DNA from: Amphiscolops sp. MND2022 | Taxonomy: Eukaryota | DNA: 64,000 nucleotides | Direction: 5' to 3' | Assembly (NCBI GenBank): GCA_964187785.1 | Contig: OZ076409.1 | Span: forward strand, 52,888,001-52,952,000 | Shown here: positions 12,252 to 50,600 of the stretch, piece by piece | Numbering within the stretch: the stretch's first letter is position 1 | Layout: each line of letters begins with the position of its first letter | Position numbers and translations under genes: made by a program | The notes under the pieces: generated by a model | Database searches by the model: none | The model's input: the letters and a program-made list of their open reading frames with translations, nothing else | What the model was told of the DNA's origin: nothing

Positions 12252-12559
12252 GTTGGGCCATACGGGAACAGCATACGTTTGGGCCCTGCTCAAGTCTCAA
12301 AAATAGCAAGAGTATTTTGAAGCGTCATAGATTCTCTTTCGAATAAATTCTCAATTTCAAAGTACCAAAATAAGCCAAAGACCTTTTTGAAGGGGAGGGT
12401 GCATTATTTCCAATCATCCGCCTCCTCTTCGGTAATACACAATTTAATTCGGATATAATGTCAAAATTCGGATATAGTGCAATATTTTTGAGCCTCTGCT
12501 TCTTCTTTAGCAAAACACAATTTATTTTCATATATACCGTCAAAAGTATAAAAGTTTGA

Positions 12560-24021: not shown

Positions 24022-24522
24022 TTTTAGTCGGCGCTTTTCTTAAGAAAAGAGCCCGACTATTACAGTCACTCGTTTTTTTTCTTTTTTTTTTTATTTAAGA
24101 CAGACTCGAAGCGACGAACGTTAAAATTAACGTTCAACTACTAAATACAGTACTACTAAAATACTGGCAGCGCATTTGAGATAGTGCAAAGGGTCCCCCC
24201 TTTCAAAAAGTCCATTTTTATTGTAAGATACAAAACAGGACGAGACTATAGGGTCCCCCCTTTGATTTTTTTTCGGCACTGTGCGACTTTTTTTTCGAAA
24301 ATTTTTTTTGTCCCCAAAGGGTCCCCGCTTCAAGTTTTTTGATATTTTGCAACGGAATGTATGTTAATAAATCCAGAAGGATCCCGCTTCTACATTTTTC
24401 GGCACTATGCGACTTTTTTTGAAAGAAAAAAATTTTTCGAAAATTTCAATTTTTTTCCAAAATTTTTTTTGCGCTTTTTGAGCCTTAGATATGGCGCCGA
24501 CTTTAGACGTTCCCGTCTTGTT
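24022..24522 (+). mobile_element. DINE-1/Helentron-associated (HINE)-like non-autonomous repeat
   Basis: 5' TTTTAGTCGGCGC with a nearby inverted GCCCGACT, 3' GGCGCCGACTT plus a GACGTTCCCGTC hairpin, T-rich flanks. Same family as 61670-62032. Confidence 0.6.
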
Positions 24523-26679: not shown

Positions 26680-29600
26680 TCATGATTCGTCTTCAGGCTC
26701 GCGAGTTGGTGTCGTGATCTTAGGTCTGTCCGTCGTGCCCGGAGGTTTTGGGCTAGAAGGTGACTCACCCTCACCGGATACGGGGTGCTGATTTGGTCGA
26801 TGGTAAGAATCTACCAATCGCTTGAGTCGAGACAATTGTTCTCGCAATTCTGTTAGCTGCTCTGTTCTCTGAAGTCAAGGAATATTGTTTGGAACTGTCT
26901 ACAAATTAATAACATTTCAAAAATGCTAGAGTTCGTTGATGAAAGTCAAAGTGAAGTATTTCAAGTTCTATCAATTTCATCTCAAACTCGAAAATTTCGC
27001 TAATTCAGTAAAAATTCAGTTCATTGTTATAATATACAGTACTGTGATTAAGAAAACGTCCCCTGGGGCGACATTGGCTCAATTTTTTTTTCGAAATCTG
27101 TTGAGAACTTTGAAAAACATCAGAAATAAAAAGTTCTTAGAATTTCATCTAGTTTATGTTAGTGTTTTTTAAATTTTTCTGGGACAAAAATTGAGAAAGT
27201 TACAAATAGCTGATTTTGAGCAAATTTGGGACTTTTTTCCGTTTTTCCAATTTTTGACCGTTTTATCCACAGTTTTTTCGGCAAGTTTTATGCTCAAATA
27301 ACTCGCACAAATCTACTGAATCTATGGATATTTTTCGATTTCGAAAATTATCAACCGTTTTCGAAATATCATCCTCGAAAGGTAAAATTTCGTCGATTTA
27401 CATGTATTAAGATAGGAAATGAAAAGCTGCGATTATGTTTTCATTTAGAATGTTTTTGAAACAAAAAATATATCATTGCTTTCTATACAATCTGCAGGAT
27501 TCGATGAATTTAAAATGCTCAGAAATTTTTTTCAAAAACCTGCCCAAAACTGGGAAAATAGCAGAAGTGTTCTTTCTGCGCCGGAGATTTCACTTGATGC
27601 GCCAATCAGAATTAAAATAGAGATCAAATACGCAATTCTAATTGGTTGATAACGACACTCAGCGTATAAAGGGACAATTTCTTAATCACAGTACTGTATG
27701 TACTTGTTAGGAAACGCAGTAATCTAATATTTGCCATGAGCAAATTTCAAGAGCTGTAGTAAAGCTTTTCATGCTCCAAAAGAAATAAGTTGAAACAAAA
27801 AATTGCTTTAAAAATTTTTAGGCTTATTTAAACGGGTGACTTTAGAAAATTCTAGAAAATCTCACACTGCGGTACTTGTCCGAAAAGGGCCTTTATGCTC
27901 GATAAATGCGTTGTCTTACTCTGAAATATATAAAAAAGAACGTCTAAAGTCGGCGCTATACCTAAGGCTGAAAAAGCGCAAAGTTTTTAAAATATGCTCA
28001 AGACGTTTCTCATTAAAAATATGACAAAAAAGTTTCGAATTTTGAACCAGTCTCATGGTACCGAAAAACGCTAAAGAGGGGATCTTTGGGTTTTTTAATT
28101 ATCCATTGGTTGCAGAGAATCAAAATAAAAGGGGATTCTTCGGCGATATCGAAAATTTCGGAAAAAAGTCTCACAATGCCAAAAAAACAGTAAATCAAAC
28201 TTTCTGAGTTGTCTAGTAACGAAAAAAAGCTTTAAAAACTATGGCACATTTTGGAAGCACAAGCGATTGCTTTCTAGTAAAGTAGGCAGGCCTATAGAAA
28301 TTCTGTAAAAAGTGACCTTTAAGGTCTGTGGTCTGGAGAAAGAAAAGGTCACTGTAAAAGTTGGGCATTTTTTGCTTCACAAAAAGCGCCGACTAAAAGC
28401 ACAAAATAATGAAAAAAATGAAAATCAATTTCTAGAAACAAAAACCACCCAGTGCCAAAAAACTTAGCAAGCGTTTTAAAATTTCTAGAACAGGGCTAGT
28501 CACTGTAATACTCGCGTCATTTTTTTTCGGAAAGCGTCGACTAAAAAAGTATCATACTCACAGTTTTGGTTTCGTCTGTAAGACGGGTATCGCTAGATGT
28601 TTCCAGGGCTGTGAATGCGTCTCCTATTCTCTTGCACTCAGCAAGCGCCAAGTCCAGGTCATCTCTCTGGTGGTTCAAGTTTTCTTCTAGTTGGTCCACT
28701 GAAAACCTACTCGCCATGTTTCTCATTTTCTCATTCACGTCGTTTCGAAGATTTTCGATCTCGTTTATGCTGAAATCGAATCACTTATGATACAAACTGG
28801 TGCTCTTTGATTTCAAAAGTAGGTTTCGGACGTCATGCCATTCCATGATAGATAAAATCAAAATGAGTCTATGAAACTGAAATGATTATTTGAGGCTATA
28901 GAGGCCATATAATCTTGCCTACCACTGAAAGTACTATGTCGTGACTACTTATTAATTTGATTGATTTCTCATCAATGCTAACAAGTGATTCTCAACCGAA
29001 AGAATTGAAGAATCGCGAAAATAATTTTTTTTTGGCGAGAAAACGTTTTTGCAAAACAGTTCGAAAAAAGTGAAAAAATGACACTTTCTAGCTCATCTTA
29101 TCCTTTTTGAAAAATTTCACGGAACACGAGTATGCTAAAAACTAATTAATTTGTAGTTGAACAAAGTGGAACTTATACCCACCAAAACGTCCAAAAATGT
29201 AAACCAATTGCAAAAAACTGTCAATAGAAGACGAAAGTTCAATTCCATTACCATTATTATGCGGGGTTGAAGCCGAATGAGCAGTTCTTTTATAAAAACA
29301 GCTCCAAGCAATGATTTCGAAGTTACTTATTCGCAACTCCTCACCGTTGCTGCTGTTTCCATTTTCATTTTCTCTGTTAAATGCATTTTTTCTCATGGCA
29401 ATACCACTCAGTTATGAGTGAAAAACTTTCTCGAAACCCCGGTAATTGTGAGTTGAGGGAGATTTGACAGTATCCTACAGCGCTAATCACTACACAATGC
29501 CCAAAATCTAGAAGGTTGTACACTTTTTGTTTTAAAAAAAATTTCGATATGCTTGACAGTCCAAGTCTTTTCAACTATTTGGATTCTACCGACGAAAAAC

Positions 29601-32600
29601 AACCAAATTTCGTACAAAAACTGCAAAAACGTTCGAAACTGCAAAAATGATCAATTCTTTAAAGCTTTTTCGAAAAATTTCTATTTCATTTTCAAAGAGT
29701 ATGCGTTACCTTCTGGTGCACCCATTTCTTTGATTTAAAAACACTGTTTCTCCATAACAGTATGCTTAGTAGCCAAACTTTCGTTGAACACTGTCAACAT
29801 TCAAAGGTGCAAATACTTCCATAATTTGGGTGTAAAACTGGAATATGGCAAACTTTGGAGAAACAAGCCGGAAACGGCATAAGTCGGCGCCCCGTTTGAA
29901 GCTCAAAAAGATCAAAAGTACTTCAAAGCGCCAGGGACTCTCTTTCGAATAAATTCTCAATTTCACAGTACCGAAATAACCCAAAGGGAGACCTTTTCGA
30001 AGGGGAGGGCACGTTATTTTCGAGCATCCGCCTCTAGAGCTTCCTTAGCAAAACGCAATTTACTTCTCACATAACAAAAATTTGGATATTATAGCGTGCT
30101 GTCCCAAATGGGAGAGCTTTTTTCGAACCCCGCCGCCACCGTTGTAAAACTTTTGTAGAAATAGCTCGGTGAGAACGTGTGGAGTGAAAAAATAACGTCT
30201 AAAAGCCACTATAATAAATGTTTTGTATCATCAGGCACCGCCCTAGTTGAGACTGCAGGAACTTTTTACATGCTGCAGGCCTGCATGCAGGGTAATTGTT
30301 TACAAAACCTAGAAAATTCAGGGTAATTCAGGTGGTAAATCTTGTAGAATTACACTGCATTTTCCACTACTGCAATTAAATTTGAAAATAGATACAACAT
30401 CATCACCGACACGACCTTATTGTATTTACAATTTGCTTTCTCAACTACTCATCTGATGTGATCACCGCGTCTCAAATAGGACGCTAAACATGACGGTATA
30501 TTGCAGTTTATTAGGTGACTGAAGTAATTTTGCATTAAAATGGCTGTTAAACTGAGAGCAATTTATTTGCTTTTAAAATAGAACTGCTTCTTAATGAAAC
30601 CTGCAAAACTTCAAGGCGTAAAATTGCCGCCAAAACTTTGATGAATCTTTCAAGCAGCTTGATAAAAGTCGAATACAATAGGTAAATATTTTCTCATTAA
30701 AGTTTCCGTAAGAGTTTTAGAAAATCATAATAAAAGTTGCTGGCAACATTAAAGTACATGCAAAAAGTTCAAGAAGTTTCAACAAGGGCGACTACAAAAC
30801 GCGGCTCAGTTTGTAAATTTTTCCCATATAGAATTATGCGCGGAAAATTACAATTGGATGATTTCCTAAAGTTGCTTGAATTATACATCCGATGAAATAT
30901 TCTATAGTTTTTCTGGAAATTTGACAAAGAATAACTGAAACCAAATCTCAAACCCGGGTCGAAATAACATCATATTCAATCTACAGCTAGTAAACGTTTT
31001 ACGTTGTTCAATATATCTGCTTTGTCATGTATTCAGAAAAAATACAGGAAAATGGACACCAGAAACTAGTCAAGCGCAGCACTCCAATCGAAGAGGGGAT
31101 ACATAATAGGGATTTCACAACCATGCATAATTGGGAAAAGTGGTTCAAAATGAAGCATGACGAAATATATGCAACATGCATGTAATTTAAAATATGTAAA
31201 TTTACAAAAAAGATGCTGTAAATTTACAAATGAGATGCTGTAAAATGAACCGGAAATACTTCTTACTTGTTTATAATGACTGGTGCAGGGCTAAACATGA
31301 GAAAGATTACGGAATTGAAAGTGAAGCTTTTGATTAATCGCCAGGCACATAAAGTGTCCAAACATTTTGAGAACACTAACCGAGTTTCCTGTTCCTTGTC
31401 ATGTCTTGAATTGGACTCCAATCTGTGATTGCCAACTTGCGCTTGCAGTTCGGTGACCTGAAGCAGGGAAAGCAGGGATTTTTACCACTTGCCCGTTATA
31501 TCCATCAAAATTTATCGTCAGAGCTCGGGCAAAAACACGGTCTTTAAGTAAACAAACTACTACTAAGACTCTCAAAATATTGGGAAAATAACTGTCCTTA
31601 TGCTTTTTTTAAAATAGAAAACCAACCTCAGTTTAAAATCCTATTGCAGGATCTAAGTTTTAAGCAAGTATAACTTTGAAATTATTCTCCTCTGGTAAAA
31701 TATGCAAGTGAGGTTTCTCCAATGTGACTTCTTTCTCCAAATAATCCGAGACAATTTTACCTGGCTATTGATTTTTCTGTAACCGTGTCAGGTTACGTAT
31801 GTTATACGGTTCATCCGTCAATCATCAAGAAACTGGTAAAGTAACCTTTACCGAACTCCGGTCGTAGACATACCTACCTAATGTTTACAAACAGTAGATA
31901 TATACTGAAACATTTCATTTATGTTATTTGGTACGAAAAGTACACTTGAGTACAGTAAAGAGATACTTTTAGAAAACTGTGTTCTTTTCCTAGTAACAAC
32001 CAGAGATACAGCTTGGCGCAGTAAGCAAGATTTAAAAAAAACAAACCGAAAATTTTTTACCGGAACCATGGCAGAAAAGAACACCGTACCGAACCTAGAA
32101 GCAAAGGCATCGGACGGAAACCAAATATTTACCCCAAGACAATGGCTGGAGAGATTCCGGCAGTTTACTAAACGAGAACACAAAATCGATATCACTCCGC
32201 TGATAAAGGGAGAAGATACCACAGAGGCCGGATGGACCGCCGAAAAAGAAACAAACATCCAAGAAGACTTCATCTGGGGAGTGGGACCGGAAGCACTATA
32301 TCAAATAACCCGGGTCGAGTATAAAACGGAACCGGACAGTATCAAAATCAAAGATCTAATCCGGTTGTACACCGAACATTACCTCCCGAAACGCAATACA
32401 TACCATAATAGAGGGGACTTCTTTTGGGCAAAACAATCGGAAAACGAGACACCTGAAGAATTTTGGAGAAGACTTATCGAGATAGAAAAAGAATGCAACT
32501 TCGGCAGTATATCAGCCGAAGAATTGCTAATATCCAAATACATGACGGCAATAACAGACAAGAAACTACGGGACAAACTAATGAAAGAGAAAACATTAGA

Positions 32601-35600
32601 GATGAAGAAAACGATCGAAATGATCAAACAAAATACCTACGAAAAGAAAAACAAGAAAAACACAATACCAGAAGCCTTGATTACAGCAAAAGAAAAACAA
32701 ATAATCAAAGAGGAACCGATACAAAGGATGGAAAAATACGGTACCAGGCCGAAAACAAGAATAACAGGAACCCGACTGTTACGACTATTTACCGGTGTTG
32801 TTTTAGATTTAGTCGCAGTGTGAATTTTGACGGGGGTAGACGTTCTTGCTACGGAGACATTCTCTGGTTCAGAGTCCGAGTCTTGAGCATTCATGTAGAC
32901 AGTCTGTTTTTTGTTTAAGGGCGCTATCAGTTTTAACATTTCCTTCTGGTTTTCCGCAAGTATTTTGGTGAGATCAGACATAATCTCTTTTCTTAATGAT
33001 GTTTTTATCTCAGCCAAGTTTTCTGGTTCTATCCTAGGGATCTTGCTAGAACTAGCTACAAGAGTTTCAGGCGGAAAGTTTTCGGTTATGGAGGTTTCAA
33101 AATCGCCAGAGACCAATTCTGCTACAGCCTTCCTTTTCTGACTTCTAGTTGTCATTTTGATTCAGAGGGAGGGAGAGAGTATCTTTGGAAAGGTTAAATT
33201 CTTCAAAGATTCGTTTTCGTTATAATAACGGAACTGAACTGATTGTTATAAGTCAAGTTGGAAAATTAACTGATTCACATGTATGTATTACATATTTATA
33301 CCTTCTCAGCATCATTTGTTCCTCACCTAAAAATTCCTAGGTATCACAAAAATCGGGTTTGTTCAACAAAAAGCGCTAATGATTCATATTATTTCAGTCC
33401 TGCGTCATAATATCAGGCATCAAAATTCCTAGTTACGTCAGCGTTCCGTAAAATTTGTTGAAGTCATTTTTGTTCAGGCGGTTCATTTCCTGTTTGTGCT
33501 TCAAAATTGCGGTAAAATAGAAGTCTAGTTTTCATTTTCATCGACGCAAGCACGCCGGCGTGATCAATTAGTCAGATTCCTAACTTGGAAGTTGAAATTC
33601 GAAGTAAAAGAATGACACTCAAAAAAATAGCAACGGAACTGTGACGGAATGTGAATATTTTATGGCCAAAGATACTTGGAAAACCAAAATGAAGAACAAA
33701 GTGATGCTGAGAAGTCTTTAGGAAACGAATAGCTTGTGTAAACGCAAATTGTTACGAACTTTACATGTATTGGGAACTCAAAACAGAACATTTGATTTTA
33801 GCATCAAGTAAATGCCACGGAAACAGTCCTTTTATCAAGACTTGTTTAGCAACTAACACACTGAGTATTCAGACTTACTGGTCTAAGAAGGCGTATAAAA
33901 ATACATCATAGCACTCAGAAGCAGATTGAGCAAAGGTAGAAAAGGAATAGGAGAGGTTATTGGAATGATTATCACTGCATCATATCAAAATTGGTACAAA
34001 TTTCAAAACAACACGAACATTACGTTCATTTCATAATCCTATCTTACAGTACAACTATTCTTTACGTAAGCTTAATCTTAAGATTCCCTAAGGTGTATAA
34101 ATTCAGAAAAGTTCTTCCAAAAGATTCATTCATTACGAAGTTTCCTAGTTGCAATTTCTTAAGTTGCTCCGTAAATGCTCCGTACGTGTTATGGTTACTT
34201 ATGGTAGAGCGGTGGAATACAATTTTAAAATCCGCTCCGTAAGTGCTCCGTACGTATTAAGATTGCTTATAGCTGAGCAGCAGTAGCAAGCGGAGTGGAA
34301 ACGGAGAGCGTAGGCGAATTCATTCTCTTCGCTTAGCTAGCAAGCGTTGCTAGGGGCAACCAAGCTTAATTCTACTGGTACCGGCTCGGATAATTCTGCC
34401 AACAAGCGACGCTATTGGTCCGTAAAAAAAGAAACGCCCGTCACCAGCTTAGTTGAGTGACGCTGTCATAACGTTGTAAACATTTACTTAAGATCACTTG
34501 ACTGCGGTATTAAGTAGATATTTAACAACTACTTTAATATTGGAATACATTTCCACTCTATTTTTGTATGTTCTTCCATTTTAGATCTCATGGGCTCCGT
34601 TGGGATCTCGGAGTTGAATGTTGTTTCTGTGTTTCATTTTAGTGTGGGGCGCCAAAATGATCCCGTTTGCAAAATTATTTAGTATTTAGATTGGAATGGA
34701 AAACTCAGAAGATAAAACCGGAAATAAAACGGCGTTGCGTGTGAAAACATTAGGCCGGAAGTTTTAGCTAGTTTAAAATCATTTCTGAAAATCTTCCGTA
34801 ACGTTTACGTTGAATTCCGTATTTGGAGAATTATTCGCGCTTATTTAATTGTACTGTAAGTAGAATTTTGATTTGATTAGTTTAATAAAGTTTAAAAGTA
34901 TTTACTGTGCCCTTGTCCATGTCCTCTGCCGAATCCCGGTATTCAATAGCAGCAAGTAAAATTACGACCGGGAGCGGGTCGTGACAGGGCCCCTCTTGAT
35001 GAGAGTGACAGGGGTAGAGCGTGGCAGTGCGGGATTTCTTTATTGTCACGGGGGGACGACCATTGTACCTTCTTGATTGGAGGGGGCCACGACCTCTTCC
35101 CGCCTTCATGTCTCTAATTTTCCTCTCTTCTTCGTCTAGTTCACGGGCTTCCTTCTCCAATCGTTCCACTTCCTCCGGACAGCATTCGGGGGGTCTAATT
35201 ATGATATTAGGGCGCAGATTTTCTTTTGCGTGTAGCCCGCGTCCACGGCCTAAGGATGCGAGGTAATTTCTGTCCTCCAAATCTAGGCTGTACAGGGCTT
35301 CCAATTCCGCTAGAGAAGGCTCATCAGGTCATTTAATTTTCCCGAGTTCGGCATTCTTTCATTCCCCATAACAGGGATATTTTCCGTTCTTTTTAGAGCA
35401 GGGGTACGCTTTATTGGGGGGGGGGTAAGCGCTGCGGTGAGTCTGGCTCTTCATAATAGTCCGTGTCAGAGTCGGCTGGCGGCAGATCGAACGTGACTTT
35501 TCCGGTTCTCCTTTTCTTTTTGGGTGTCGGTGCCGTTTCGGGCGACTCGGAGGTGGAAACCATTTGTGCATCGCTTCCGCGATAAACTTCGACGGAAGAA

Positions 35601-38600
35601 TCGCTCAAGTATCCTACCATATTGAGAGGCAGCGTTTTTATCGGTGTACTGGTCTTATTGGCTTCTTCATCTGACGAGATGTCGATAACTAGCGAATAGT
35701 TATTCATTTTAGTAGGAGAGAATACTGAGTACTATTTCGGAAAGGTTGCAGGTAGTTTGTTAGTGAGGATTTCTTGTAACGCTTCAGAAAATTGAGAAAA
35801 TTTTAAGCTGGTCAAGCTTCTGCTGAAATTGGACGACAAGTGAACGTTTTAAATTATTTCCTTTCGGAAATTTCATCGAACTTCTATTGGTCGATTTTCC
35901 GTTTTCGTTCCGGTTCGTCACGAGTTAAAGGAAACGAGTTCTTTCTTGCTGCGTTATGATTGGTCGAAATACTTGAGGGAAACTTCTAATTTTAGTTTCC
36001 GTCCTCTTTTCGGTTAATGGCGTAATGACGTCACAGAATTACATCTGTAGTCCGTGATCTTTTAATAATTTCCCAAGTTCTTCTTGACATTTCTTGGTGG
36101 ATTTTTATCCACTGTAAGGTCTTTGGAAACGTTTTGTTCCGTCTATGCCATAATAGGCTTTTATTGGAGTTGAAGATAGGGTGATTTTCATTTATGTAGG
36201 AATGATGTTATTAATTTCCTCCCAATTAGTTGCGTTTACGTAACGTAATTCTTCTTCTTTGTGATTTTCGTTCTTTTTTTTTAAATTGCTGTGGGCATCT
36301 TTGCTGTCGTTTCTTTCTATGGATGACGAAACTGCTCCGCTCCAAGGCACCGTCACCGGATTTGTCAGTGGCAATGAAACCAATTTTTGTTATACTGACG
36401 ATGACGTGATCTTTTCGGAGGTGGAGGCAGTGGTTACTTCTTCAGGTTGGTAAAATCTTTCTGACTTTCATGGGTAATTGGACTGTTGTTTTGGTGATCA
36501 GCCTTTTCAGTCTTACCCGAATACCTGACGCGTCAAACCAGATCTTGATTTTCAGTAACTCAACCTGGCGCTTCAACTGCGGTTGTTTCCGTAGCCACTG
36601 CGGGAGTTCTTTCGACAGAGGCTACTGTTCTGCCATCAGTTTCTACTATCTTGTCTTCTAAGCCTTCTAGTGCTGTTAACGAAATGTTAACCACTGTATT
36701 GACTAGCGCTGAGCCCGACGATTCATTTCCAGTCGACTCTTCTCCTGTCATTGTTGGTCCGAGTACGCGAGTTGTTGCTGCAAGTAGCGATAGTGAGTCT
36801 CAAGAAGGTGAGACAGATCCCCCGCCAATAGAAAAACCCGTTGATAGATTCGTTTTTGATGGTATATTTCTGGTATGTGGGCGGGGTGTACGAAAATTAT
36901 TTTTGTTGTTGTAGATATGAGGGATGCTGAGACGTATGGACCTTCCAACATTTGTGTGACGCCATCGAAACGGGCAAAGAAGGTTGTTATCGCTCCGCCA
37001 TCGCCTCCTCCCTTGGTGCATGCTTCTACTGGTTGGCAAAGTTAGTTCTAATATTGTTTTTATCTTTCGTTTCATTCTTTGAATTGGGGAGAGTGTTAGT
37101 TGCCCATTGGTTTGGTTTGTTTGGGGATGTCCTATTTTTTGGTACTCGTTTTCATTGGGTGTTGATGTTGTGTAGGTCACGATGATGATCAGTTGTATGG
37201 TGTCGGCGGTGTGACGTTGAGTCCCCAGGATGTGATGCGATTGGGTCAGCAACTTGTGGAAGAGGTGACGGAAAGTGCTACGCTGGTTATTCAAAACGGT
37301 TAGCGTTTGCGTTTTCCCTGTAATTCGGGTATTACTTTGTTGTTTGGTGAGGGTTTTCGTTCATTTTCAGTGTAGTGTGTATAATCTTTATCCCCTTCGT
37401 GTCTTGTTTGTAGAGTTGTAACAGTTCAGTGGGAAGGTAGAAAAACGTCTGGCCAAGCGGACAGTGAAGACATACGGGAATCGCAACACGTTGCATCGTC
37501 GTATGTTGAGTCGACATCCTGCTTTTCCTGATTTCGTGACAGGCTCCACGACTGGTGAGGGAACTCACTTCCACTGTCGGGTATGCAAGCGTGATGTGGC
37601 CATGAAAGCTCAGGGCTCTGGAGAGTTTAGCAGACATTTCCGTTCTGATGCTCACTGGTTTAAGGACGTTACTTATCGCGTCCATATGGGTCTTCAGGTG
37701 CTCAACAGGTTGATGGAGCCGATGGAACTGTCAGCAAGTCAACTGGCAGACTATAAGTCTCGACCATTTTGTGATCTGAGCGGGGAGTATCCGTTCCCTG
37801 AAGATCTATTGCCCAAGCATTCAAAAGCGGAGTCAAACGTGCCCTACATGACCTTGGTTTCTTGTTTTTGCAAATTCTTGCGGAATGGTTGTGATCTTGA
37901 TTATCTTCGTCGTCTGTGGGGCCACTTCCGAGCAACATTGGGCGACCGAGAACCTTGCTTTCCTTTACGATGGAGCCGTTCGGAGACCGTGGTGAGTTGG
38001 TTTGGGTATTGTTATTGTTTATTTCCGTCATGTATCCGGGTGAGAGAAAACAGAAAGGGATGGGGGAATGTCTGTTGTAGTTGTTTTGAAAGTAGGGTCT
38101 CGTTTGTGTTTTAGTCATTCCTTTGTCGGGGGCTGGCTCCGCGAGTTCTTCGTCTGATGTTGAGTGACGTCAAATCTTTTAAAGAGTACGGGATGCAGTT
38201 TGAGAAGTCTGGGTGCATAGAACGTTGCTATGTTCTTTGTTAGGATGGATTGAATTTAAAGAAGATTTGTGTGGGAGATCAGTCCTTGGATCAAAAAATG
38301 CCCGAACCCGAGTTGCTCCCATTGGCACGTGTAGCGAGCTGCCTAGAGGGACAGCAATTACCGGTGTCAGTTCTTGGCGCTAGCCCTTCCCTCATTCGCA
38401 TGTTAGACGCGAACAGGACGGATGATCGGCGGTTTCTGTCATGGCAGTCGTTTGATGAGGAGGTGTTTCTCCATTGTTTCCGTCAGTCTCATCAGGACAT
38501 TTTTGGAATGATTGAAGTGACGACTGCATTGGAGTATGTGATTCATCGATTGAAAGGGGCTTTGTATGAGGATTGGACAGAAGACAGGCCTCTTCTTCGA

Positions 38601-41600
38601 TCGTGTATACGGGACGGCTCCGTTGCATTCTGCAATCTTCGAGAGGTCCTGGGCGATTTAATCGAACTGTGGCCTTCCATACGTCCTTACATTCGCTACA
38701 CAGGACATCCTCATTTTAAGAGTGTTGCTGATAGGGTGAGTACCGTCGTATTATTTGTTTATTTCGGTCTTGTGTCATTCCTTTGTTCTCTCCTGTGCTC
38801 TGCTGTGGTATATATGATCTTGGAATGATGGTATAATTTATCCATTTTAGCTGCGCGGCACAGACTTCGAGTTAATCTCCGATAGTCTCATTGTCTATCG
38901 TTTCGGCTTCCTTCGACTGCTTTTAGACTCCTGTAAGTATGGTGATCTTTCGTTATAATTGTTCTCTTTCGACTGTTTCTGATTGTGGTAGTGTATTGGC
39001 TGATGTTTCTTGTCGTTGTGGATATGCTATTGTATCTGGTTTCTATTGGCTGTTTCGTTTTGATCAAGGATTCTGCTTCTTTTCATTAGTTCATGTGTTT
39101 AGATTACTTCAATTTTGAGAGATTGCGTCAGTGCCGGAGAGATTACGGGTTTCATGGTTACGGTGAGGTCTGCAACTTCGTTTACTGTCTGCTGATGCGA
39201 ACCCGTAAGCTGTCTGATTTGCCTGGTATCCATGAGTGGGAAAGTTATATGGATATTTCGAAACTTTCTTATTTCAACGCTATTTCCATGGAGGAATTCC
39301 TGATGGACAGTGATTTTGGTCGCGAGCTGGTCACTGTCAAGACGGGTGAGATGCGGGAATTCCGCGTTAAATGTCGTGAGTGTATTGATCGGCTCGTGTC
39401 TTTGATCCTGACTAGTACAGCTGTGACTTCTGGCGTTTCGCGAGGACTTTATGCTTTCTGTCCGGAGATTATGTTGGGCGGCGACGATCACCACATTTTC
39501 GAGTTGTTTGGCTCTCTTTGTGATTTGTTCAGATCCTGCCACGTGATGTCTTCGGACGGCTTGAATGCTGCTGTTGCTGAGTTCAAGAGCTATGTGATAG
39601 AGAAACGCAGGCATTACGAGGATGCGACATGTGCTGCGAGTGAGATTCCTGACGTGGTTCAGTTTCTGTTGCGGGATTTTGCCTTCCAGTCTCGGACTCA
39701 TGTATTTCGATTGTTAAAAATATGTTGTCTGGTGGTTGGAGTGCCAAAAAGTAACCTTCCTGCAGTTACTATTGATTTGGGTGGTAGCGCGCTGAGTCCG
39801 GCAGTGGTTCAGGATTGTGTATTGATAGTGCAGTCTCACATCGTCAGTCCGAGTTTCAATCCTCGATTGTTCTTTTCAGCTTCGTTGCTTGTTGCAGTCC
39901 GGGAAGCTATTGCAGAGTCAGGCATTTTCTTCAGAGTTGCCGATTTGATGTTTGGAAAGATTTTTGCTCTGGCGATATGGAGTCTTTTGTTGGGCGTTAT
40001 CGATCTTTGTATAAGAAGTATTTAATGGGGCGACAAAGGGAGTACGACACTTTCTATGTGGAAAGCAACAAGGCGAATCGGCGTTCTCGCGAGAGTCAGT
40101 GTTCAAGTTCAACCGAGGCCGGAAGTGCTACAAATTCTGTTGTCGGTTCCAAGAAGGCATCGTCAAAGTCTGGGAAAGTAAATGCGTCTACTACTCGTTC
40201 ATCAGCAAAAGTTGTGAGTAAGGAAGATAGAACTGTTGCGAAAAAGAGTGGTGGTGGCAGTGTGTCTAGAAGGTCAAAGAAAGATAAGGGCAGTGCTTCT
40301 GATGATTCCGATGCAGTCCACAAGTTGAAGAAGACATCTTCTAAGAATTAGTGGATAACTGATGCTGATTTGATTTCTTGATGAATTATATCTTTTGTTA
40401 TACTTGGTATTTGTATTCTTTGTTTTATGATTTGATTGATTTCTACAAGTCACATCAGTCATTCGTTATAGTTACGTAGTTTTAGTAGATTGCAAAAATT
40501 GACGTAGTCATTCCGGTTCGGTTTGATATGCTGATTTTTGTCTAGTCTTGAGCTGATCGTAGTTCTCCCGTAGTGACTGAGTCGAGGATTCTGAAGTCAG
40601 GATTTACGTTAGGTCGTGGATTAGGTCTCAAATTATATCGCCCTACTTTCCTAGGATTATATCCAATGACTATAGGCGGTAGTTCGGGTGTTTTGGGAGG
40701 GCTTTCTATAGGTGGCGGTGTAAAAATATAGGGGTTGTCGCTGACGTCCAAGTTAAATGACGTTATGTTGTCGGAGGGTGTTTTCCCTTCTGCAGAGTTT
40801 TCATTTGTGGCTGTTTGAGCCACGTCATTTTCCGTTATATCTTCGCTTGTGGTTGTTTTAACCACGTCATTTTCCGCTGTAATTTCATTTGTGATTGTTT
40901 TAACCACATCATTTTCCGCTGTAATTTCGTCGTTTTCTGTTGTGTCTGTGATTTCTGCAACTGTGGCTTCTTCGGTGGTGTTTTCCGTATTGTTTCCGAA
41001 CAGAACTCCTCCGAATTCGGTTTCCCAAGCTTGCGCGTACCAATCATTGTGGGTTGTTTTAACCTCTGGATCTGGAAGGTAATCTTCCCTTCTGACTGTT
41101 ACGTCAGGTACTCGCTGATTGGGAGCATATAGCCTTAGGCGAATTCTATGGAGGGTTTGAGTGTACCTAGTTCCTGTGCGACGTACGACGTAGTTATTGT
41201 TCGAAAGTACTTTGATTACTATGTAGGGTCCAGTCCAAATACAATCTTTAAAGGCAAATTTCATTGACTGGTTGTCTGCCTTTGGATTGAGGACGTAGCA
41301 GTAGTCGTTGACCTTGAGCGGTGTAGTTGTTGCTTTCTTGTCATAGTACTGTTTGTGTTTGAGGTAAGACTGCATTAGGTTCTCTTTGGCAGCTTGGTGT
41401 ATTTCGGCTATTTGTTTCTGTAATTGGTCCGTTAATTCTTCGTTGCTATCTTTTTCCCAGTTAGGTTTCAATCCAAGTTTTATGTCCAAAATGTTGTACG
41501 GGATGCGTCCGTGAAACACTGTTGTAGGTTCACAACCTAGGCTTTCATGGTAGCTTGTATTGTAATTCATGACTGCAATCTGGACGTATTTGTGCCACAT

Positions 41601-44600
41601 GGAACGTCGTTCTCCCGTTGATATCTTTAAAGAGGTTTCCAAAGAGGCATGGGTCCTTTCTAGGATGCCAATTGTTTGGGCGTGTTTCGTCGATGCGTGG
41701 TTTATCCGTATATCCAGTGTTTGTGCTATTTGGTTGACGACTTCTGACCTGAATTGTGATCCTTTGTCCGTTAGAATGACGGTCGGTAGGTAGCAGTGTC
41801 GTGTCATGACGTCTATTATGCATCGTGCGACTGTTTTTGCTGTCATATCCTGAGTCGGATAAGCGAAAAGGTAACGCGAAAAAACATCCATCATCGTTAT
41901 GATGTGTTGGTATCCATTTGAGGAAGGTAAGTTTGGTAGGATGTCCACTTCTAGGCAATCTTCTGGTCCCATTGTGAATTCAGTGTTGCTTAGCATTTTG
42001 GGACGTATCTGTCTCGTGTCTATTCTTTTATTGGCGATGCAATCCTGACAACTGGTTACCCAAGCTCTGATTTTTCGTGCAAGACCCGGGAAGTAGTATT
42101 TCGCTCTGCATTCTTGTATCATTTTGGTGATTCCTGGGTGTTTATTTGTTTTCCCATGTAGAGTGGACAGGAGTTCTGGGACTAGGTGTTTTGGAATTAT
42201 AATTTGGTTATGTGTGACTGTTCCGTCTTCTCCATAATACTTTCGCATCAGAACTCCATCTTTCATTATGATTCTTTCTTCGTGGCGTAGTAGGTTTCGT
42301 CCTCGTGGTTCAGTTTTGAGAAGGTGCTTGTCATATTCTTCGTGTGAGATCCGTTGTTTCAGTGCTTTGAGGAGGGGATCTGCATCTTGTTCGTTTCTGA
42401 TCCGTGCATTTTCCTTAATTGCACAAAAAGAGTAGACTGCGGAGTTGAGTGGTATCTTGATGACTTCGGTTACCTTTGTTGATAGTTCTCTTTCATGTTC
42501 ATCTAGGGCACGTCGTTTGCTGAATGCCTTTCGGGCAAAAATTTCTTGTTCAGATTCATCTTCTTCATCTGGTAGGAAGAAAAGTTGTTCCTCGTCAGCT
42601 ACATCTGATGATTGTAGGTTAACTTCAATTGGGGACGTTAGGATGTCGTTCCGTAGTTTAAGTTGTACCTTTTCTTTCGGTGTAAGTTCAAGTCTTGAGA
42701 GAAAATCTGCTGCTGTGTTTTGGGAGCCTGCTACGTGCATGATCCGGAATTTGAACTGAAGTACGTAGTCGCAAGCATTCCACAGTGCAGGTGGTGTTGT
42801 TTTCGTCTGAAAGAATCTGGTTACTGAGCGGTTGTCCGTTAAGACCAGAGTCGGAATTGTTGTTTCCCATAGTATATGGCTGTATTCAAGGAAGGCGTGG
42901 TAGATTGCTAAGAATTCCTTGCAGTAAATGGACATTTTCAGTTGTGCAGGTGAAAAAACTCGTGATCCGAACGCTACTGGGGCGAAGGTTTTCCGTTTGG
43001 AGAGTATTTTGCGTTCGTCGTTCTCCTCGATCATGAGGGCGTAGCCTGATGCACGAAAGCTTGCATCCGTCATTAGAACGTACTGTTTTCCTGCTATGGG
43101 CTGTCTGAGTGCAAGTCCACAAGCTTCCGCTAAACTGACGTTAATTTCCTTAAAGTTATCGACAAGTTCTTCTGAAATTCTGATTTTGGTTTCTGCTTTG
43201 AGAAGTTCGTACATGCCGATGAGTTTTTCTGACAAGCGCGGTATGTAGTTGCGGTAGTAGTTAACAAAGCCAATGTATTTTTGAACTTGTTTTTTGGATT
43301 TGGGGAAACGGACTTTGGTGAAGAAATTTTTGACTTTTTGATCTTGCGGGGCTACGCCGTCGGGGGTGATGGTTCGGCCAAGGAATTCGATTTGGGTTAC
43401 TCCAAAATGGCATTTTTCGATGGTTAGTTTTAATCCTGCTTTTCTAATGCATTTGAAGACTGCTCTGATGTTCTGTATGAGCTGTTCCGTTGTGTTTGCG
43501 GCAATGCCAATGTCATCTACGTTATGTGCACATTGGTCGGCTTTGATACCTGAGTCCAGATACTCTCGCATGAAGCTCGAAAAAGCTGATAGGGCTCTGC
43601 TTAGTCCTTGTGCCAGGCGACGGTAGGCGAACGTCCTACTAGCAAAATTAAAAGCAAGTAACTCTACTGACCTTTGATCTGCCATTTGAAGGCAGTGATA
43701 CGCCTGGGAGCCGTCAAGCTTGCAGAACAGTTTTTTCCCTGCTAGGTGTTGTGCCGCATCTGAGAGGGTGCTGACAGGGTGGTTGTTGTTGAAGTAGTCA
43801 TCTGCTATAAGTGCGTTGATTTTGCGCAGATCCACCAGTAGTCTCAGTTTGCCGTTGGGTTTCCGTTGTGCAAATATGGGACTGGCATACTTGGAGAAGG
43901 GGAGTGTCGTGATGATTCCGTATCGATGCATGAGGGCCAGTTCCACAGTCAGGTCTTCTTTGAGGTTGATTGGGACGGGTAGGCTCTGTGTGTAGACTGG
44001 TTTGTCATCTTGTGGTGTCAGGCTGACTTTGAATTGTGTGTTCATCCCTATGTCTAGCCGGTATCGAGCGAAGATGTCGTTGAATTCGACAATGGTGTCC
44101 TCGAGGTTTTCACGGTCTTTGTTCGCAATCTGTGAATCTGTCCATTTCAACATGGAAAGAAATTTGTTTCGAGACTCTTCGTTTTCGGTTGGGTCAAGTT
44201 TTTCTAGCTCGGCAAGGTCTCGCAATTCTTTCAAGATTCGCATTTGTATGGGCGAATGTTCCTGTTCGTTGCCGGGGTGTTCTGGGGTCGGAAACCAGAA
44301 TTTCTCTTCATTGTCGTCGGGCCGCTCTACTTGCATTAGTGCATTGATGTACGTGACCGCATCGACATGGTCAGTGAGGAGGTTTAGGGCGGCTATGTCA
44401 ACTGGGCGGCTCATCTTCGTTTCTTCGGGTTTCAGGATTTGCAGTTCTGCCATTTTGTTATTGGTGGCTATTGTGTATGGGAAATCCGTAGTGTTGGCGA
44501 TTTTTATTGGTATCTTTTTGTCTCTGGCTGTTGTAATTGCTGGAGCTACTATTACCTTCGCGCATTCGTCGAATTGTGGTAGGGGTTGTATAGTGCCCGT

Positions 44601-47600
44601 TATTGAGTGTTCGATACTCACAGGGATTGTTGCGTAGATGATTCGGGTAGAGTGCGCTGGGATTGTATGCTTGGCTTCGGTCTTTATCGTGATGGGTTTG
44701 GGATTGCACTTTTGTCTTTCGTCTGTGAGCGCCATCGTTATTTGGATCTTAGGAAAGTCAATGGTTCCCTGTGCCGTGTCAAGGATTGCGGCATGCTTAC
44801 GTAAGAACGCTAATCCAATTATAGGGAATGACGTTTGATTCATGATGATGAATGTTTCTTCAAAAGTGTAATCCCCTATTTTGAAACGTAGGGTGTACGT
44901 GGCAAGTGGTTGTTCTAATTCGGCGTTGGCATACTGCACTTTGAAAGGGGGTGGGGGTGCCTTATTGACGATGCACTGACTGGCATGCTGTCGGAGTTTT
45001 TCAGCGTCCCTTTCGCTAATAGCGTTAATGTACGCACCTGAGTCGACTAAAGCGTCGATTTTGACCGTGTTGAATTCGACTGGTAGGAAAAGCATTCGTT
45101 TTTTCTTCTTGAGCGCGATGGAAGACATTAACGGGAAGTAGTCGTCGTCTTTGTCATGTTGGATGAATTCCTTGATGGTGTCTAGATCTTCAGGCAATTT
45201 TGAGGGACATTCCGTGATTTCTACGTCGTCATTCATTAGTGTTGTGACGGGCGCGGTTTTTGGAGGGGTCACTGAAGGATCAGCATTTTCTCGTTTTCGT
45301 TTTTCTTGATGCGCCCATATGGTTTTGTCCTCGACGCAGATGATGTTCTCAGCGTCTATTGGTGTGGACGTGATGGTGACGGGTACTGTTGGGGATGGTG
45401 TTGTTCTCTTGAGAATTGGCGATGGTGGTGATGGTAGGTCCATGATTTCTGTGGATTGAGCCTGGGAGTTTGAGACTTGTATTTTGAAGGAGAGTTTGTT
45501 AGTATCATAAATGGTTGGTTCATCCCAGGGATCGCATCTGTAGTCTCTATCATAGATGTAGATACGTTCAGTTTTTGATTCTGGTAAGGGTCGCTTGAGT
45601 GTTGCGTAGTTATCTGGTGACTCTGTTATCCATTGAGGTAGCGGTGTTGGGTCGTCTGGATGTCTGGCATTGTGTCGGAGTATCATGCCTACGTTCCATC
45701 GGCGTTGCCAGTCCTGACTTGGTTCTTCGTTACACTCTGTGAAAAAATTTTCTTCGTACCTATTTGGGGGGTCTTCGATGGTGTACGCCCTCGCGTCTAC
45801 TTTGTCCCCGAAGCGTAGGCGCGGCGACTTCAGTTTTTTGCTTGGTACGACGTCGTAGGTACGGGTTGTTCGTCAATCTTGTTTGTTGGGATAGTGAACT
45901 CACGTTTGCGTTTCCTGGGGTCATTTGCCGCATTGGCTCCGTCCCAGCAATTTTCGGTTTTGTGCATTTTTCCACAAGTAACGCATTTGGGTTTAGCTGT
46001 ATCTGTTGGTTTGGTGTCTGTGGTACTTGTTTTTGTGGCGTAGTACCTGTCTTTGCGGAGGCGACGGCATTGTGCCTTGTAATGTCCGTATTTCCCACAG
46101 TGGAAACAGTAACCTCTCTGCTGTTTGTCTTTCTTATCGTCCGCCACTGCTGCGTCCACGGTGTTGAGGGGGACTAGGGTGGTTTCATCAGGTGCTCCTA
46201 GCCCGTTGAGTCGCATTTCACGTTCAATGTGTAAAACAATGTCGTTATAGGGCTTATCTTCTAGGTAGGCTCTGTTAAGGATCTTTTTGACGTGATCCGG
46301 CATTTTAGCGTATATGGCTTTGTCGATGAACTTCTGGGCTTCTGAGCCAAACGCTTCTTTTGCGGTTTTTTGTAACGCGTCAAGAAATTCGTGGAGTTTT
46401 TGTTTGGTGGGGTCGAAATGTAGCGCATCCCACTCACATCTCGCTTTGGCGGATGATTGGAAATCACCAAAGCGACGTTTGAATGCCGTTATGACTTCTT
46501 CTAGGTTGTCTTTTTTAGTGTCATCTAGATTACAATACGCTTGTAGCGCGTTTCCTCGTAGGAGTGAATGGAAGTAGTTGATCTTTTGTATCTCGGTTAA
46601 GTGAGGGTACATTTTGATGTTATTTCGGAATAGGTCCTCAAAAAGTTCAAACTTTTCGAACTTACCATCGAAGACTGGAAGTGAAGCAGTGAGTGCTTTC
46701 GGCATCGGGAGTAGATTGGTAGATGGAAATGTTTGCGGTTGTGGCGCGAACAGTATTTTAGAAGTGGAAGGACGATCTTTTGTTTGTTCGTTGGATGCGC
46801 GTTGTTGTTTCGATCTTTTCGTGGGTTGGTTGGTAGAGTCATTGAGGACTCCTGTCACCATGTTACGACTATTTACCGGTGTTGTTTTAGAGTTAGTCGC
46901 AGTGTGAATTTTGACGGGGGTAGACGTTCTTGCTACGGAGACATTCTCTGGTTCAGAGTCCGAGTCTTGAGCATTCATGTAGACAGTCTGTTTTTTGTTT
47001 AAGGGCGCTATCAGTTTTAACATTTCCTTCTGGTTTTCCGCAAGTATTTTGGTGAGATCAGACATAATATCTTTTCTTAATGATGTTTTTATCTCAGCCA
47101 AGTTTTCTGGTTCTATCATAGGGATCTTGCTAGAACTAGCTGCAAGAGTTTCAGGCGGAAAGTTTTCGGTTATGGAGGTTTCAAAATCGCCAGAGACCAA
47201 TTCTGCTACAGCCTTCCTTTTCTGACTTCTAGTTGTCATTTTGACTCAGAGGGAGAGAGAGAGTATCTTTGGAAAGGTTAAATTCTTCAAAGATTCGTTT
47301 TCGTTATAATAACGGAACTGAACTGATTGTTATAAGTCAAGTTGGAAAACTAACTGATTCACATGTATGTATTACATATTTATACCTTCTCAACATCATT
47401 TGTTCCTCACCTAAAAATTCCTAGGTATCACAAAAATCGGGTTTATTCAACAAAAAGCGCTAATGATTCATATTATTTCAGTCCTGCGTCATAATATCAG
47501 GCATCAAAATTCCTAGTTACGTCAGCGTTCCGTAAAATTTGTTGAAGTCATTTTTGTTCAGGCGGTTCATTACCTGTTTGTGCTTCAAAATTGCGGTAAA

Positions 47601-50600
47601 ATAGAAGTCTAGTTTTCATTTTCATCGACGCAAGCACGCCGGCGTGATCAATTAGTCAGATTCCTAACTTGGAAATTGAAATTCGAAGTAAAAGAATGAC
47701 ACTCGAAAAAATAGCAACGGAACTGTGACGGAATGTGAATATTTTATGGCCAAAGATACTTGGAAAACCAAAATGAAGAACAAAGTGATGCTGAGAAGTC
47801 TTTAGGAAACGAATAGCTTGTGTAAACGCAAATTGTTACGAACTTTACATGTATTGGGAACTCAAAACAGAACATTTGATTTTAGCATCAAGTAAATGCC
47901 ACGGAAACAGTCCTTTTATCAAGACTTGTTTAGCAACTAACACACTGAGTATTCAGACTTACTGGTCTAAGAAGGCGTATAAAAATACATCATAGCACTC
48001 AGAAGCAGATTGAGCAAAGGTAGAAAAGGAATAGGAGAGGTTATTGGAATGATTATCACTGCATCATATCAAAATTGGTACAAATTTCAAAACAACACGA
48101 ACATTACGTTCATTTCATAATCCTATCTTACAGTACAACTATTCTTTACGTAAGCTTAATCTTAAGATTCCCTAAGGTGTATAAATTCAGAAAAGTTCTT
48201 CCAAAAGATTCATTCATTACGAAGTTTCCTAGTTGCAATTTCTTAAGTTGCTCCGTAAATGCTCCGTACGCGTTATGGTTACTTATGGTTGAGCGGTGGA
48301 ATACAATTTTACAATCCGCTCCGTAAGTGCTCCGTACGTATTAAGATTGCTTATAGCTGAGCAGCAGTAGCAAGCGGAGTGGAAACGGAGAGCGTAGGCG
48401 AATTCATTCTCTTCTCTTAGCTAGCAAGCGTTGCTAGGGACAACCAAGCTTAATTCTACTGGTACCGGCTCGGATAATTCTGCCAACAAGCGACGCTATT
48501 GGTCCGTAAAAATAGAAACGCCCGTCACCAGCTTAGTTGAGTGACGCTGTCATAACGTTGTAAACATTTACTTAAGATCACTTGACTGCGGTATTAAGTA
48601 GATATTTAACAACTACTTTAATATTGGAATACATTTCCACTCTATTTTTGTATGTTCTTCCATTTTAGATCTCATGGGCTCCGTTGGGATCTCGGAGTTA
48701 AATGTTGTTTCTGTGTTTTCATTTTAGTGTGGGGCGCCAAAATGATCCCGTTTGCAAAATTATTTAGTATTTAGATTGGAATGGAAAACTCAGAAGATAA
48801 AACCGGAAATAAAACGGCGTTGCGTGTGAAAACATTAGGCCGGAAGTTTTAGCTAGTTTAAAATCATTTCTGAAAATCTTCCGTAACGTTTACGTTGAAT
48901 TCCGTATTTGGAGAATTATTCGCGCTTATTTAATTGTACTGTAAGTAGGATTTTGATTTGATTAGTTTAATAAAGTTTAAAAGTATTTACTGTGCCCTTG
49001 TCCATGTCCTCTGCCGAATCCCGGTATTCCATAGCAGCAAGTAAAATTACGACCGGGAGCGGGTCGTGACACCGACCATGCAGATTCTGCAACGCACCGA
49101 ACTGGAGCCCAATACACAAATGCCCCGCACAAGACTCAAATTGTAACAACTGCGGAAAGAAAGGACACTACGCACGAGTATGTAAACAAAGAATGAAGAA
49201 CAACCGAACAGTGAAAAAACTTACCGAAGAAGAAGAAATAGAACCGAATGAATCAATCATTGAATCGGATGAGAGTATATATCACATAGAAGAAATAAAG
49301 AAGATCGTAGAACAACAGAAACACTACACAGCAAAAATGAAAATAAATGGAACACCAAAAGAATTTATAATTGACACCGGATCCCCAATAACAATAATGC
49401 CACTAGACGAACAAATAATGAAGAAGACCGAATCCAGAAAATAACAAACCGATATCAAGACGTGAACAAAAACGAAGTAAAACTCCGGGGGAAGATACCG
49501 GTAGACATGGAGTACGACAATAACAAACAAAAGATGGAAATACTAATTACCGAAAGAACGGATATAACACCATTCTTGGGTATGGACTGGATGAAAAATT
49601 TCAAATTGACAATCGGAAGAATACAATTAACCGAACCCAATCAGTCGGAAAAAGAAAAAGTAATCAAAAAGTTTCCGGACCTATTCGAAAACAACCGAAC
49701 AAAAAAGATACCGAAATAAATATACAATTGAAACCCGGACACTACCCGGTAAAACAAAAAGCGAGATTCCACTACACCTACAAGAAGATGTAGGACGAGA
49801 ACTTGAAAAACTAATAAAAGCCGGACATCTAGAAAAAATAAACAACGTGGATGAAGACTGTTTTGTATCACCGGTAGTAATAACAGTAAAGAACGATAAA
49901 TCGGTAAAAATAGCATTGGACTCCCGAAAACTAAATGACAGTTGCATTAAACGGAGACCACACAGGCCGAACATGGAAGAATTATTAAACCAAATTTCGA
50001 TGGAAATTTCACGGGACCGAACACTACAACTATTCATGTCAAAAATTGACTTAGACTACGCATACGGACAAATGAAACTTTCCGAAGAAACAAGCCGACA
50101 ATGTGTATTCGTAATTACCGGAGAAAAATTTAGCGGATAATACAGATTCAAAAAAGAGTTTTACGGACTTGCCGATCTCCCCACAATCTTTCAAGGAAAA
50201 ATTGACCGAACATTAGAATACAGCACACCGGCATGGCTAGATGACATCATAGTAGTAACACGCGGAAATAAACAGGAACACGAGAAGAAACTATTTGATG
50301 TACTATCCAAACTCGAAAAAGCCGGATATCGGGCAAGTAGAAGAAAATCGGAATTCTTCCTAAAGCAGACCAAATGGCTGGGACATGAAATCGACGAGAA
50401 CGGAATAAAACCGAATGAAGAAAAAGTCGAAGCCATACAAAAGCTGAAGTCACCGAACAATACAAAAGAACTGAAATCATTTCTCGGCGCAATACATTCT
50501 TTAGCAAAATTCCTACCGAAACTTTCGGAAAAAATAGACAGACTGAGAAAATTGCTGAAAAAGAATGAACCATGGATATGGGAAGAAGAACAAGAAAAAG

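Follow-up and report, generated by a model that had tools for sequence, protein, structure and literature searches.

How a gene full of introns can persist inside an element that multiplies by reverse transcription is the question raised by a locus of Amphiscolops sp. MND2022. The window analysed here, a stretch of 64,000 nucleotides (contig OZ076409.1 of assembly GCA_964187785.1, positions 52,888,001 to 52,952,000; coordinates below count from its first letter), contains a Ty3/Gypsy retrotransposon, here called element B, whose gag and pol genes lie on the minus strand. Between pol and the 3′ long terminal repeat (LTR), on the plus strand at 36319–40351, we found a gene of eight exons joined by seven GT-AG introns, with relatives throughout the genome and a predicted transposase-like fold. 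The genomic RNA of such an element is the opposite strand, so that the introns of an antisense gene pass through reverse transcription. Self-comparison of the window verified the carrier in which the original prediction had placed this gene: the LTRs (32777–34986, the 3′ LTR, and 46861–49071, the 5′ LTR, both read on the minus strand) are 99.0% identical, have TG...CA ends, and are flanked by a 5-bp target duplication. The minus-strand pol (40542–45872, 1776 aa) gave Pfam matches in the order protease, reverse transcriptase (RT), RNase H and integrase (IN), which is the Ty3/Gypsy order, and is preceded on that strand by a gag of 471 aa with a zinc knuckle (45830–47245, minus strand).

To define the gene, sibling copies were collected by a DNA search of the genome, which returned at least 37 matches at 89–100% identity; 34 of the 36 other copies were aligned. 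The exons, all on the plus strand, are exon 1 (36319–36445, 127 nt, with a conserved acidic motif), exon 2 (36556–36839, of low complexity), exon 3 (36915–37040, 126 nt), exon 4 (37176–37298, 123 nt), exon 5 (37414–37991, 578 nt), exon 6 (38115–38735, 621 nt), exon 7 (38851–38932, 82 nt) and exon 8 (39103–40351), and the intron phases are 1, 1, 1, 1, 0, 0 and 1. The junctions 37991/38115, 38735/38851 and 38932/39103 were correct as first proposed, and so was the upper end of the proposed intron sizes (53–170 nt). The 53-nt intron 2 was not: its donor at 36862 yields an exon of matching length in just this copy and three of the 34 siblings, two of them open, and the donor common to all 34 siblings lies at 36840, which makes intron 2 (36840–36914) 75 nt long and the range 75–170 nt. 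Another donor tried for intron 2, at 36873, left none of the 34 siblings open. Reading through any of the introns meets between one and six stops. With the corrected model, six siblings are open over 1060–1068 aa, in agreement with the single frame of about 1070 codons that had been claimed (about 1,065 codons by our count), and the other 28 are broken.

The copy in the window is itself broken at five places: stops at 37419 in exon 5 and 38241 in exon 6, frameshifts at 36818–36822 in exon 2 and near 39943 in exon 8, and a splice acceptor just upstream of the plus-strand ATG that is lost here at 36283–36284 and intact in 30 of 34 siblings. The original prediction had counted three lesions, and all three turned out to be private to this copy: none of the 34 siblings has either stop, and the frameshift near 39943 is likewise confined to it. 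The count fell short by the two further breaks. The gene carries 23 private substitutions over 4033 sites, against 21 mismatches between the two LTRs, so that the damage in this copy looks like decay after insertion.

Substitutions inherited by several copies behave quite differently from rare ones. Changes common to at least three copies fall on 15.4% of third codon positions, compared with 5.8% of first and 3.6% of second positions (p = 2e-23), whereas rare changes are far flatter (27.6% of third, 23.8% of first and 21.5% of second positions; odds ratio 1.3, p = 0.002). All but one of the 15 shared insertions or deletions are intronic, the lone exonic one being 15 nt long, and the splice dinucleotides are canonical in 467 of 472 cases. 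Against three subfamilies, the nonsynonymous and synonymous divergences (dN/dS) were 0.05/0.38, 0.18/1.76 and 0.40/2.25, or ratios of roughly 0.1–0.2 in which the larger dS values are saturated. From these patterns we regard it as very probable that this is a real spliced gene under selection. Separately, single-copy changes in near siblings showed no strong excess at CpG (62 transitions at 394 CpG sites and 240 at 1466 other C/G sites), which suggests that these elements carry little CpG methylation.

At least 140 matches to exon 8 occur in the genome, in tiers of identity from 97% down to 58%. In all 30 loci sampled, which were drawn from the top-scoring matches, the gene runs antisense to gag-pol. 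They comprise ten divergent loci of the clade to which the gene of element B belongs (clade 1), where it lies between pol and an LTR, one of them with a partial pol; nine further clade-1 loci, three of which are partly deleted or interrupted; ten loci of a second clade, again within LTR elements; and element A in the same window. When eight divergent copies were modelled, five could be read as an open frame of eight exons, in which exon lengths were nearly constant and the introns varied, and three had no open solution; in one copy (L042) the automated modelling mis-called a junction whose conserved sites are visible in the alignment. Intron positions and phases stay constant even between subfamilies whose proteins are only about 38% identical.

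The clade-2 proteins are about 25% identical to that of the spliced gene, with E values of 1e-64 to 1e-74 over 730–840 aa. Their counterpart of exons 5–8 is one continuous frame, and their genes have introns in the N-terminal part and an equivalent of exon 4; the best exon chains in eight loci contained four phase-1 introns in four, mixed phases in two, and none that could be found in the remaining two. A third, very divergent member of the family lies broken in element A, on the minus strand at approximately 3000–6800 (profile matches at E 1e-12 to 4e-10), antisense to a pol on the plus strand at 9–2227. Its introns (5459–5398, 4896–4832, 4696–4630 and 4547–3883) are in register with introns 5, 6 and 7, plus one extra, and the exon between the last two is 82 nt, as is exon 7 of element B. 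Because windows of AG-82 nt-GT occur 12 times in those 4 kb, the support comes from the protein register and not from the length alone. Element A shares 70% RT identity and about 52% IN identity with both other clades. The last of its introns is 665 nt long and holds a 33-bp repeat array at 4072–4236.

These comparisons supported the inference that antisense orientation keeps the introns through retrotransposition, since orientation is the same in every sampled locus, positions and phases agree across subfamilies, and the third lineage conforms as well. The element also holds an internal control, as a neighbouring accessory open reading frame (ORF) on the sense strand has no intron. Protection is not absolute. 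In one relative, L119, intron 7 is missing exactly at the predicted junction, with exons 7 and 8 fused without a gap, and two loci more distant than L119 (L123 and L127) retain introns 5–7; this exact loss gives indirect support for the predicted junction. Four database proteins of another lineage (P0182, P0186, P0188 and P0189) read through the intron-7 position with a gap of only two residues, which suggests that this lineage may have lost intron 7 too. A supposed loss of intron 5 in three long open frames was rejected, both of the two frames checked proving to be introns read in frame. For clade 2, loss of introns 5–7 is favoured but not shown, because the root among the three lineages has a support of only 0.465. 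If these placements are true, the gene is a natural system for introns kept, exactly lost and gained inside a reverse-transcribed genome, and it offers a direct test of orientation against intron survival: a sense ORF with no introns, an antisense gene with four to eight, and exact losses that can be placed on a tree.

The original prediction recognized the spliced antisense gene and overlooked both the second accessory gene described below and the likeness of the protein to hAT transposases. A structural model of P0214, a clade-2 homologue, built from 28 sequences, reached a predicted local distance difference test score (pLDDT) of 75. In Foldseek its ten best rows were all Hermes (best E 5e-5), and its alignment with the Hermes hAT transposase had a Z score of 13.1 over 401 residues (root-mean-square deviation 5.2), the next row scoring 6.6. 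Exon 5 supplies a zinc finger followed by helices, exon 6 the RNase H-like strands and the start of the helical insertion, and exon 8 a helical domain, a region that corresponds by position to the hAT C-terminal region, and a basic tail. The zinc-finger ligands (C-x2-C-x16-H-x5-H) are conserved across both clades, and a tryptophan in the insertion region is conserved as well. A DDE_Tnp_4 match appeared at E 0.15 in 1 of 28 homologue members. The dimerization domain PF05699 gave no match in the gene family, compared with 150 other loci in the genome that match it, and Pfam scans gave no match to TRP28 (PF04195) or to an SMC-like domain. The Atlas lists hAT-type families at 0.79–0.82 and weak FAM200/ZBED5-like leads, to be taken as a lead only; its TBC-domain matches for exon 8 (0.90–0.91) fell below the recognition threshold and were not accepted. 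Judging from the modelled fold, a hAT origin of the protein is highly likely.

The catalytic positions were then matched by eye in 24 sequences, using the strands of the model and the motifs of the genome's own hATs. The first position is non-acidic in 18 of 18 clade-2 sequences and the second in 22 of 24, no acid is conserved in the third region, and the C-x2-H motif is not kept. When the 25 longest pairs listed for each of three copies were compared, no bracketing terminal inverted repeats (TIRs) were shared, and no inverted repeat of at least 40 nt brackets the gene. With the catalytic residues not kept and no such repeat, we describe the protein as having a hAT-like fold and do not class it as an active hAT transposase; by its motif register it is likely to be catalytically dead.

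One intron stands apart from the rest. Intron 1 (36446–36555, plus strand, 110 nt) has a single shared variant in 110 columns, compared with 107 in 733 columns of introns 2–7 (p = 2e-6), a degree of conservation that exceeds that of the exons. A six-base palindrome near its 3′ end (36526–36535 here) recurs in 11 of 11 clade-1, 10 of 10 clade-2 and 7 of 9 further loci. The fold predicted for the intron in clade 1 pairs its two splice-site regions, and an Rfam scan of 32700–49200 gave no match at E 1.

The antisense gene also has a partner. A second accessory gene, an intron-free sense ORF on the minus strand, starts at 35707, head-to-head with the antisense gene, crosses the polypurine-tract position and runs into the 3′ LTR (34930–35707, the lower end being approximate). 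It is broken in this copy; the ORF is at least 199 aa long in 15 of 19 related loci (about 200–290 aa in relatives), is of low complexity, and keeps its position in both clades. Five such ORFs gave no Pfam match below E 0.15. Its clade-1 N-terminal motif is one that we take to be SUMO-interaction-like. Between the two ATGs lies a gap of about 0.6 kb (35708–36318), a candidate bidirectional promoter with conserved motifs and the upstream splice acceptor. A palindrome at about 36025–36033 and one box are invariant in all seven aligned clade-1 copies; we take these motifs to be a CRE-like palindrome and a CCAAT-type box. The acceptor before the plus-strand ATG is present in 6 of 7 clade-1 and 6 of 6 clade-2 aligned copies. 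An internal promoter for the antisense gene is thus plausible from the conservation of this gap.

The history of the gene is partly separate from that of its carriers. With three loci left out (L046, L133 and L135), RT and exon 8 were compared among relatives. The window and L119 are 96% identical in RT and 44% in exon 8; the window and L036 are 91% identical in RT, 73% in exon 8 and about 70% in the LTR; and for L042 the LTR is 95% and exon 8 66% identical. The gene diverges much faster than RT, and the two trees are concordant at depth and discordant at the tips. By these comparisons the gene is exchanged among lineages with near-identical pol. L048 and L119 have near-identical sense ORFs and exons 8 that are only 46% identical: exchange of the second accessory ORF between lineages is independent of that of the antisense gene. 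The LTR of element B contains a 68-bp tandem unit (34152–34278 and 48236–48362) with one 8-mer present four times, and related units occur in other clade-1 LTRs. Co-variation of the protein with this repeat was considered and rejected: the fourfold 8-mer recurs only in two near relatives, and LTR similarity does not track the gene.

A profile search gave 692 protein matches, and among the members listed for 10 clusters none was named; in annotation, such genes show up as fragmentary unnamed ORFs. For two database lineages the best match in this genome is no higher than 53% and 36%, so that the family is probably present in other genomes. A metagenome scan found no relative, and a search with the exon-8 alignment found no longer homologues.

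What, then, does the protein do for the element? We lean towards the reading that a hAT transposase was co-opted as a nuclear DNA-binding accessory regulator of the retrotransposon. The GT-AG introns, which are not splice sites in the genomic RNA of the other strand, are passed on as the element replicates. An internal and probably bidirectional promoter would, as conservation indicates, produce two messages: a spliced one encoding the protein of about 1,065 aa and, from the opposite strand, an unspliced one encoding a small disordered protein. The core of the larger protein would be a hAT transposase fold with an N-terminal zinc finger, predicted for the homologue and extended by homology, and loss of the DDE residues, to go by the motif register, would leave it unable to cut DNA. 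Least certain is the last step, in which the nuclear DNA-binding protein may aid expression of the element or its escape from silencing, and intron 1 may be an autoregulatory site, either as a DNA palindrome or as a splicing switch. For the role itself, regulation of transcription or chromatin, we see about an even chance. A more elaborate version is offered tentatively: a retrotransposon lineage might have domesticated a DNA transposase in the way known from hosts, and the two genes might form a cassette driven by one bidirectional promoter, in which a dead zinc-finger hAT protein and a disordered SUMO-binding protein counter host silencing, intron 1 acts as a switch, and the whole is swapped like an effector module.

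Several results weigh against a co-opted hAT regulator. The hAT fold was obtained on a homologue that is about 25% identical and not on the protein of this gene, and exon 8 folded alone, without the strand-bearing exons, gave only coiled coils and no Hermes match. Pfam scans of the exons and homologues returned no hAT family at E 1 or better, searches of PDB sequences brought up nothing of relevance, and HMM and profile-profile comparisons with 25 long frames from the genome's hAT loci gave no match. Some acidic residues remain: Glu occupies the first of the catalytic positions in 5 of 6 clade-1 sequences and the second in 2 of 18 clade-2 sequences. Sampling by top score leaves room for a host copy outside LTRs. 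The intron-1 palindrome is absent from element A, and the predicted fold of the intron is weak, with z between −1.2 and −2.6 on either strand and a two-sided change in 1 of 35 pairs. The uncoupling of gene similarity from LTR similarity argues against lineage-specific binding of the element's own LTR, leaving as candidates an invariant site or a target in the host.

Among the alternatives to the regulator, the one that survives best, though we think it unlikely, shares its hAT origin and makes the protein a replication cofactor that binds element cDNA or RNA and serves nuclear import, integration targeting or packaging. A fold built for holding DNA ends, as that of hATs is, would suit such a task, as would the basic tail and the presence of the gene in all sampled lineages; on the genomic strand, the conserved palindromes of intron 1 could serve as an RNA signal. 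For antisense ORFs of plants, roles in import or export have also been suggested (PMC7264820). A tight partner of integrase would, however, not be expected to diverge far faster than RT and IN, nor to be exchanged among lineages with near-identical pol.

That same diversity, with many deeply diverged variants on similar pol backbones, is what would be seen if the protein acted on the host or on competing elements, either as counter-defence or, together with the sense ORF, as a toxin-antidote or exclusion pair, and conflict kept the variants diverse. The head-to-head second gene, with the motif that we take to be SUMO-interaction-like, fits such a conflict effector. We nevertheless rate it as improbable, as dN/dS in the core is well below 1 and the two accessory genes have been swapped independently (L048 and L119), unlike a cognate pair.

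A still-active transposase or nuclease, giving this or other elements a second route of movement, is very improbable. The whole hAT fold and the clade-1 glutamate at the first position are what such an enzyme would retain, but the other two catalytic positions and the C-x2-H motif are not kept, and no TIR pair around the gene, among those listed, is shared by three copies. The target duplications of about 5 bp, in this copy and in most related two-LTR copies, are integrase-like and not the 8 bp of hAT.

Slightly weaker still is the idea that the antisense transcript matters mainly as RNA, through double-stranded RNA or small-RNA self-limitation, with the protein secondary. LTR elements are known to produce non-coding antisense transcripts (PMC7264820), and intron 1 is conserved at the nucleotide level; against this, the protein is conserved despite saturation at synonymous sites, and frame and splice sites are kept. 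Finally, a hitch-hiking and decaying passenger, be it a nested DNA transposon or a captured host gene, has next to no probability: the five breaks here and the 28 of 34 siblings broken under the model would suit it, but the breaks are mostly private, as damage acquired after insertion would be, the inherited changes bear the mark of purifying selection, and the gene spans lineages with 70% RT identity.

The co-opted regulator has partial precedents. Plant and fungal Gypsy elements contain antisense ORFs at the same position, whose origin and function are open (PMC7264820); such ORFs are also treated in the available parts of PMC11963269, PMC4093653 and PMC8365987. Like the plant ORFs of the aORF-3R type, the present gene occupies the interval from pol to the 3′ LTR in antisense orientation, is conserved and is found in most copies (PMC7264820; available parts of PMC11963269 and PMC4093653). 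The antisense ORF of Grande has its own internal promoter and a nuclear protein, and such ORFs have been proposed to be DNA-binding regulators (PMC7264820, and the accessible portions of PMC11963269 and PMC4093653). The differences are that the plant genes are described as ORFs, with introns unmentioned in the portions of PMC11963269 and PMC4093653 available, compared with four to eight conserved introns here, and that known antisense ORFs show no similarity to other transposons according to PMC7264820, as opposed to a hAT fold, about 1,065 codons and a head-to-head sense partner. The TRP28 domain of the Retand and Grande TRP28 ORFs has no match in this family.

Spliced antisense genes for nuclear regulators of their own transcription are found in HTLV-1 (hbz) and HTLV-2/3/4 (aph), by the available text of PMC10186651. 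These are driven by the 3′ LTR, encode small bZIP-type or related proteins and belong to exogenous retroviruses, whereas here there is a candidate internal promoter, many introns and a transposase fold. With Hermes and the domesticated hATs (ZBED, FAM200) the protein shares a predicted fold of about 400–500 residues, the N-terminal zinc finger and the insertion-region tryptophan; it differs from them in having no sequence-level match, an apparently lost triad, no TIRs, and a carrier that is a retrotransposon and not a host locus. The BED finger of Hermes binds DNA repeats (PMC10368747, as far as its text was available). Accessory genes of animal LTR elements (the env of Tor, which has an internal promoter, the short ORFs of MDG1, the Burro domains and the extra ORFs of rotifers) are likewise kept by selection, some with internal promoters, but are envelope, small upstream or polyprotein-fused ORFs, and none is described as antisense, intron-rich or transposase-derived in the available parts of PMC4402516, 10.1101/2025.03.14.642691 and PMC6431247. 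A brown algal DNA transposon has an accessory gene on the opposite strand (PMC12477816, available part).

No antisense gene of an LTR element that is rich in introns or derived from a hAT turned up in our literature search, which had partial coverage with Repbase reports and supplements outside it. Antisense accessory ORFs are already known, and what had no precedent in that search is an intron-rich, transposase-derived one. A search for spliced antisense transcripts in LTR retrotransposons has been called for (PMC7264820), and in this family the origin can be traced to a hAT transposase, selection is strongly supported, and a single genome holds many young copies. The family suggests that domestication of a class II protein by a class I element is possible; one kind of transposable element seems to have put the protein of another kind to new use.

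Other features of the carrier were noted. A purine-rich stretch adjoins the 3′ LTR at the polypurine-tract position (34987–35000, minus strand), and its role is assigned by that position; a primer-binding-site-like TGG at 46860 comes next to the 5′ LTR. Roughly the first 128 codons of gag lie inside the 5′ LTR (46861–47245, minus strand; LTR counterpart 32777–33161), these codons are conserved across subfamilies, and the gag frame reads through the primer-binding-site-like sequence. A weak dUTPase-like match (E 0.14) was seen in pol (P0001) at residues 399–478, between protease and RT, and two related pol proteins carry PF00692. None of the 120 RT relatives listed for element B is named. Element B is inserted in another Gypsy-like element, whose flanks are at 31909–32776 and 49072–52346, the right one with matches to RT, RNase H and an integrase zinc domain. 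Both halves match a paralogue at 16025–18277, and a relative about 75% identical, with a tandem duplication of 1869 nt, spans 16025–21494.

Elsewhere in the window, 9008–14963 consists of duplicated blocks with offsets of 1126, 2426 and 3552 nt and 98–99% identity, within which lies a frame resembling a gag N-terminus (11573–12346); these blocks may be LTRs of element A that were rearranged, or an artefact of assembly. At 24468–27982, 45-nt inverted repeats (93%) stand 3.4 kb apart, with no clear target duplication seen, and may mark a non-autonomous DNA transposon. Repeat arrays at 60563–60777 and 59046–59196 are built of 29-bp palindromic units and 32-bp units, respectively.

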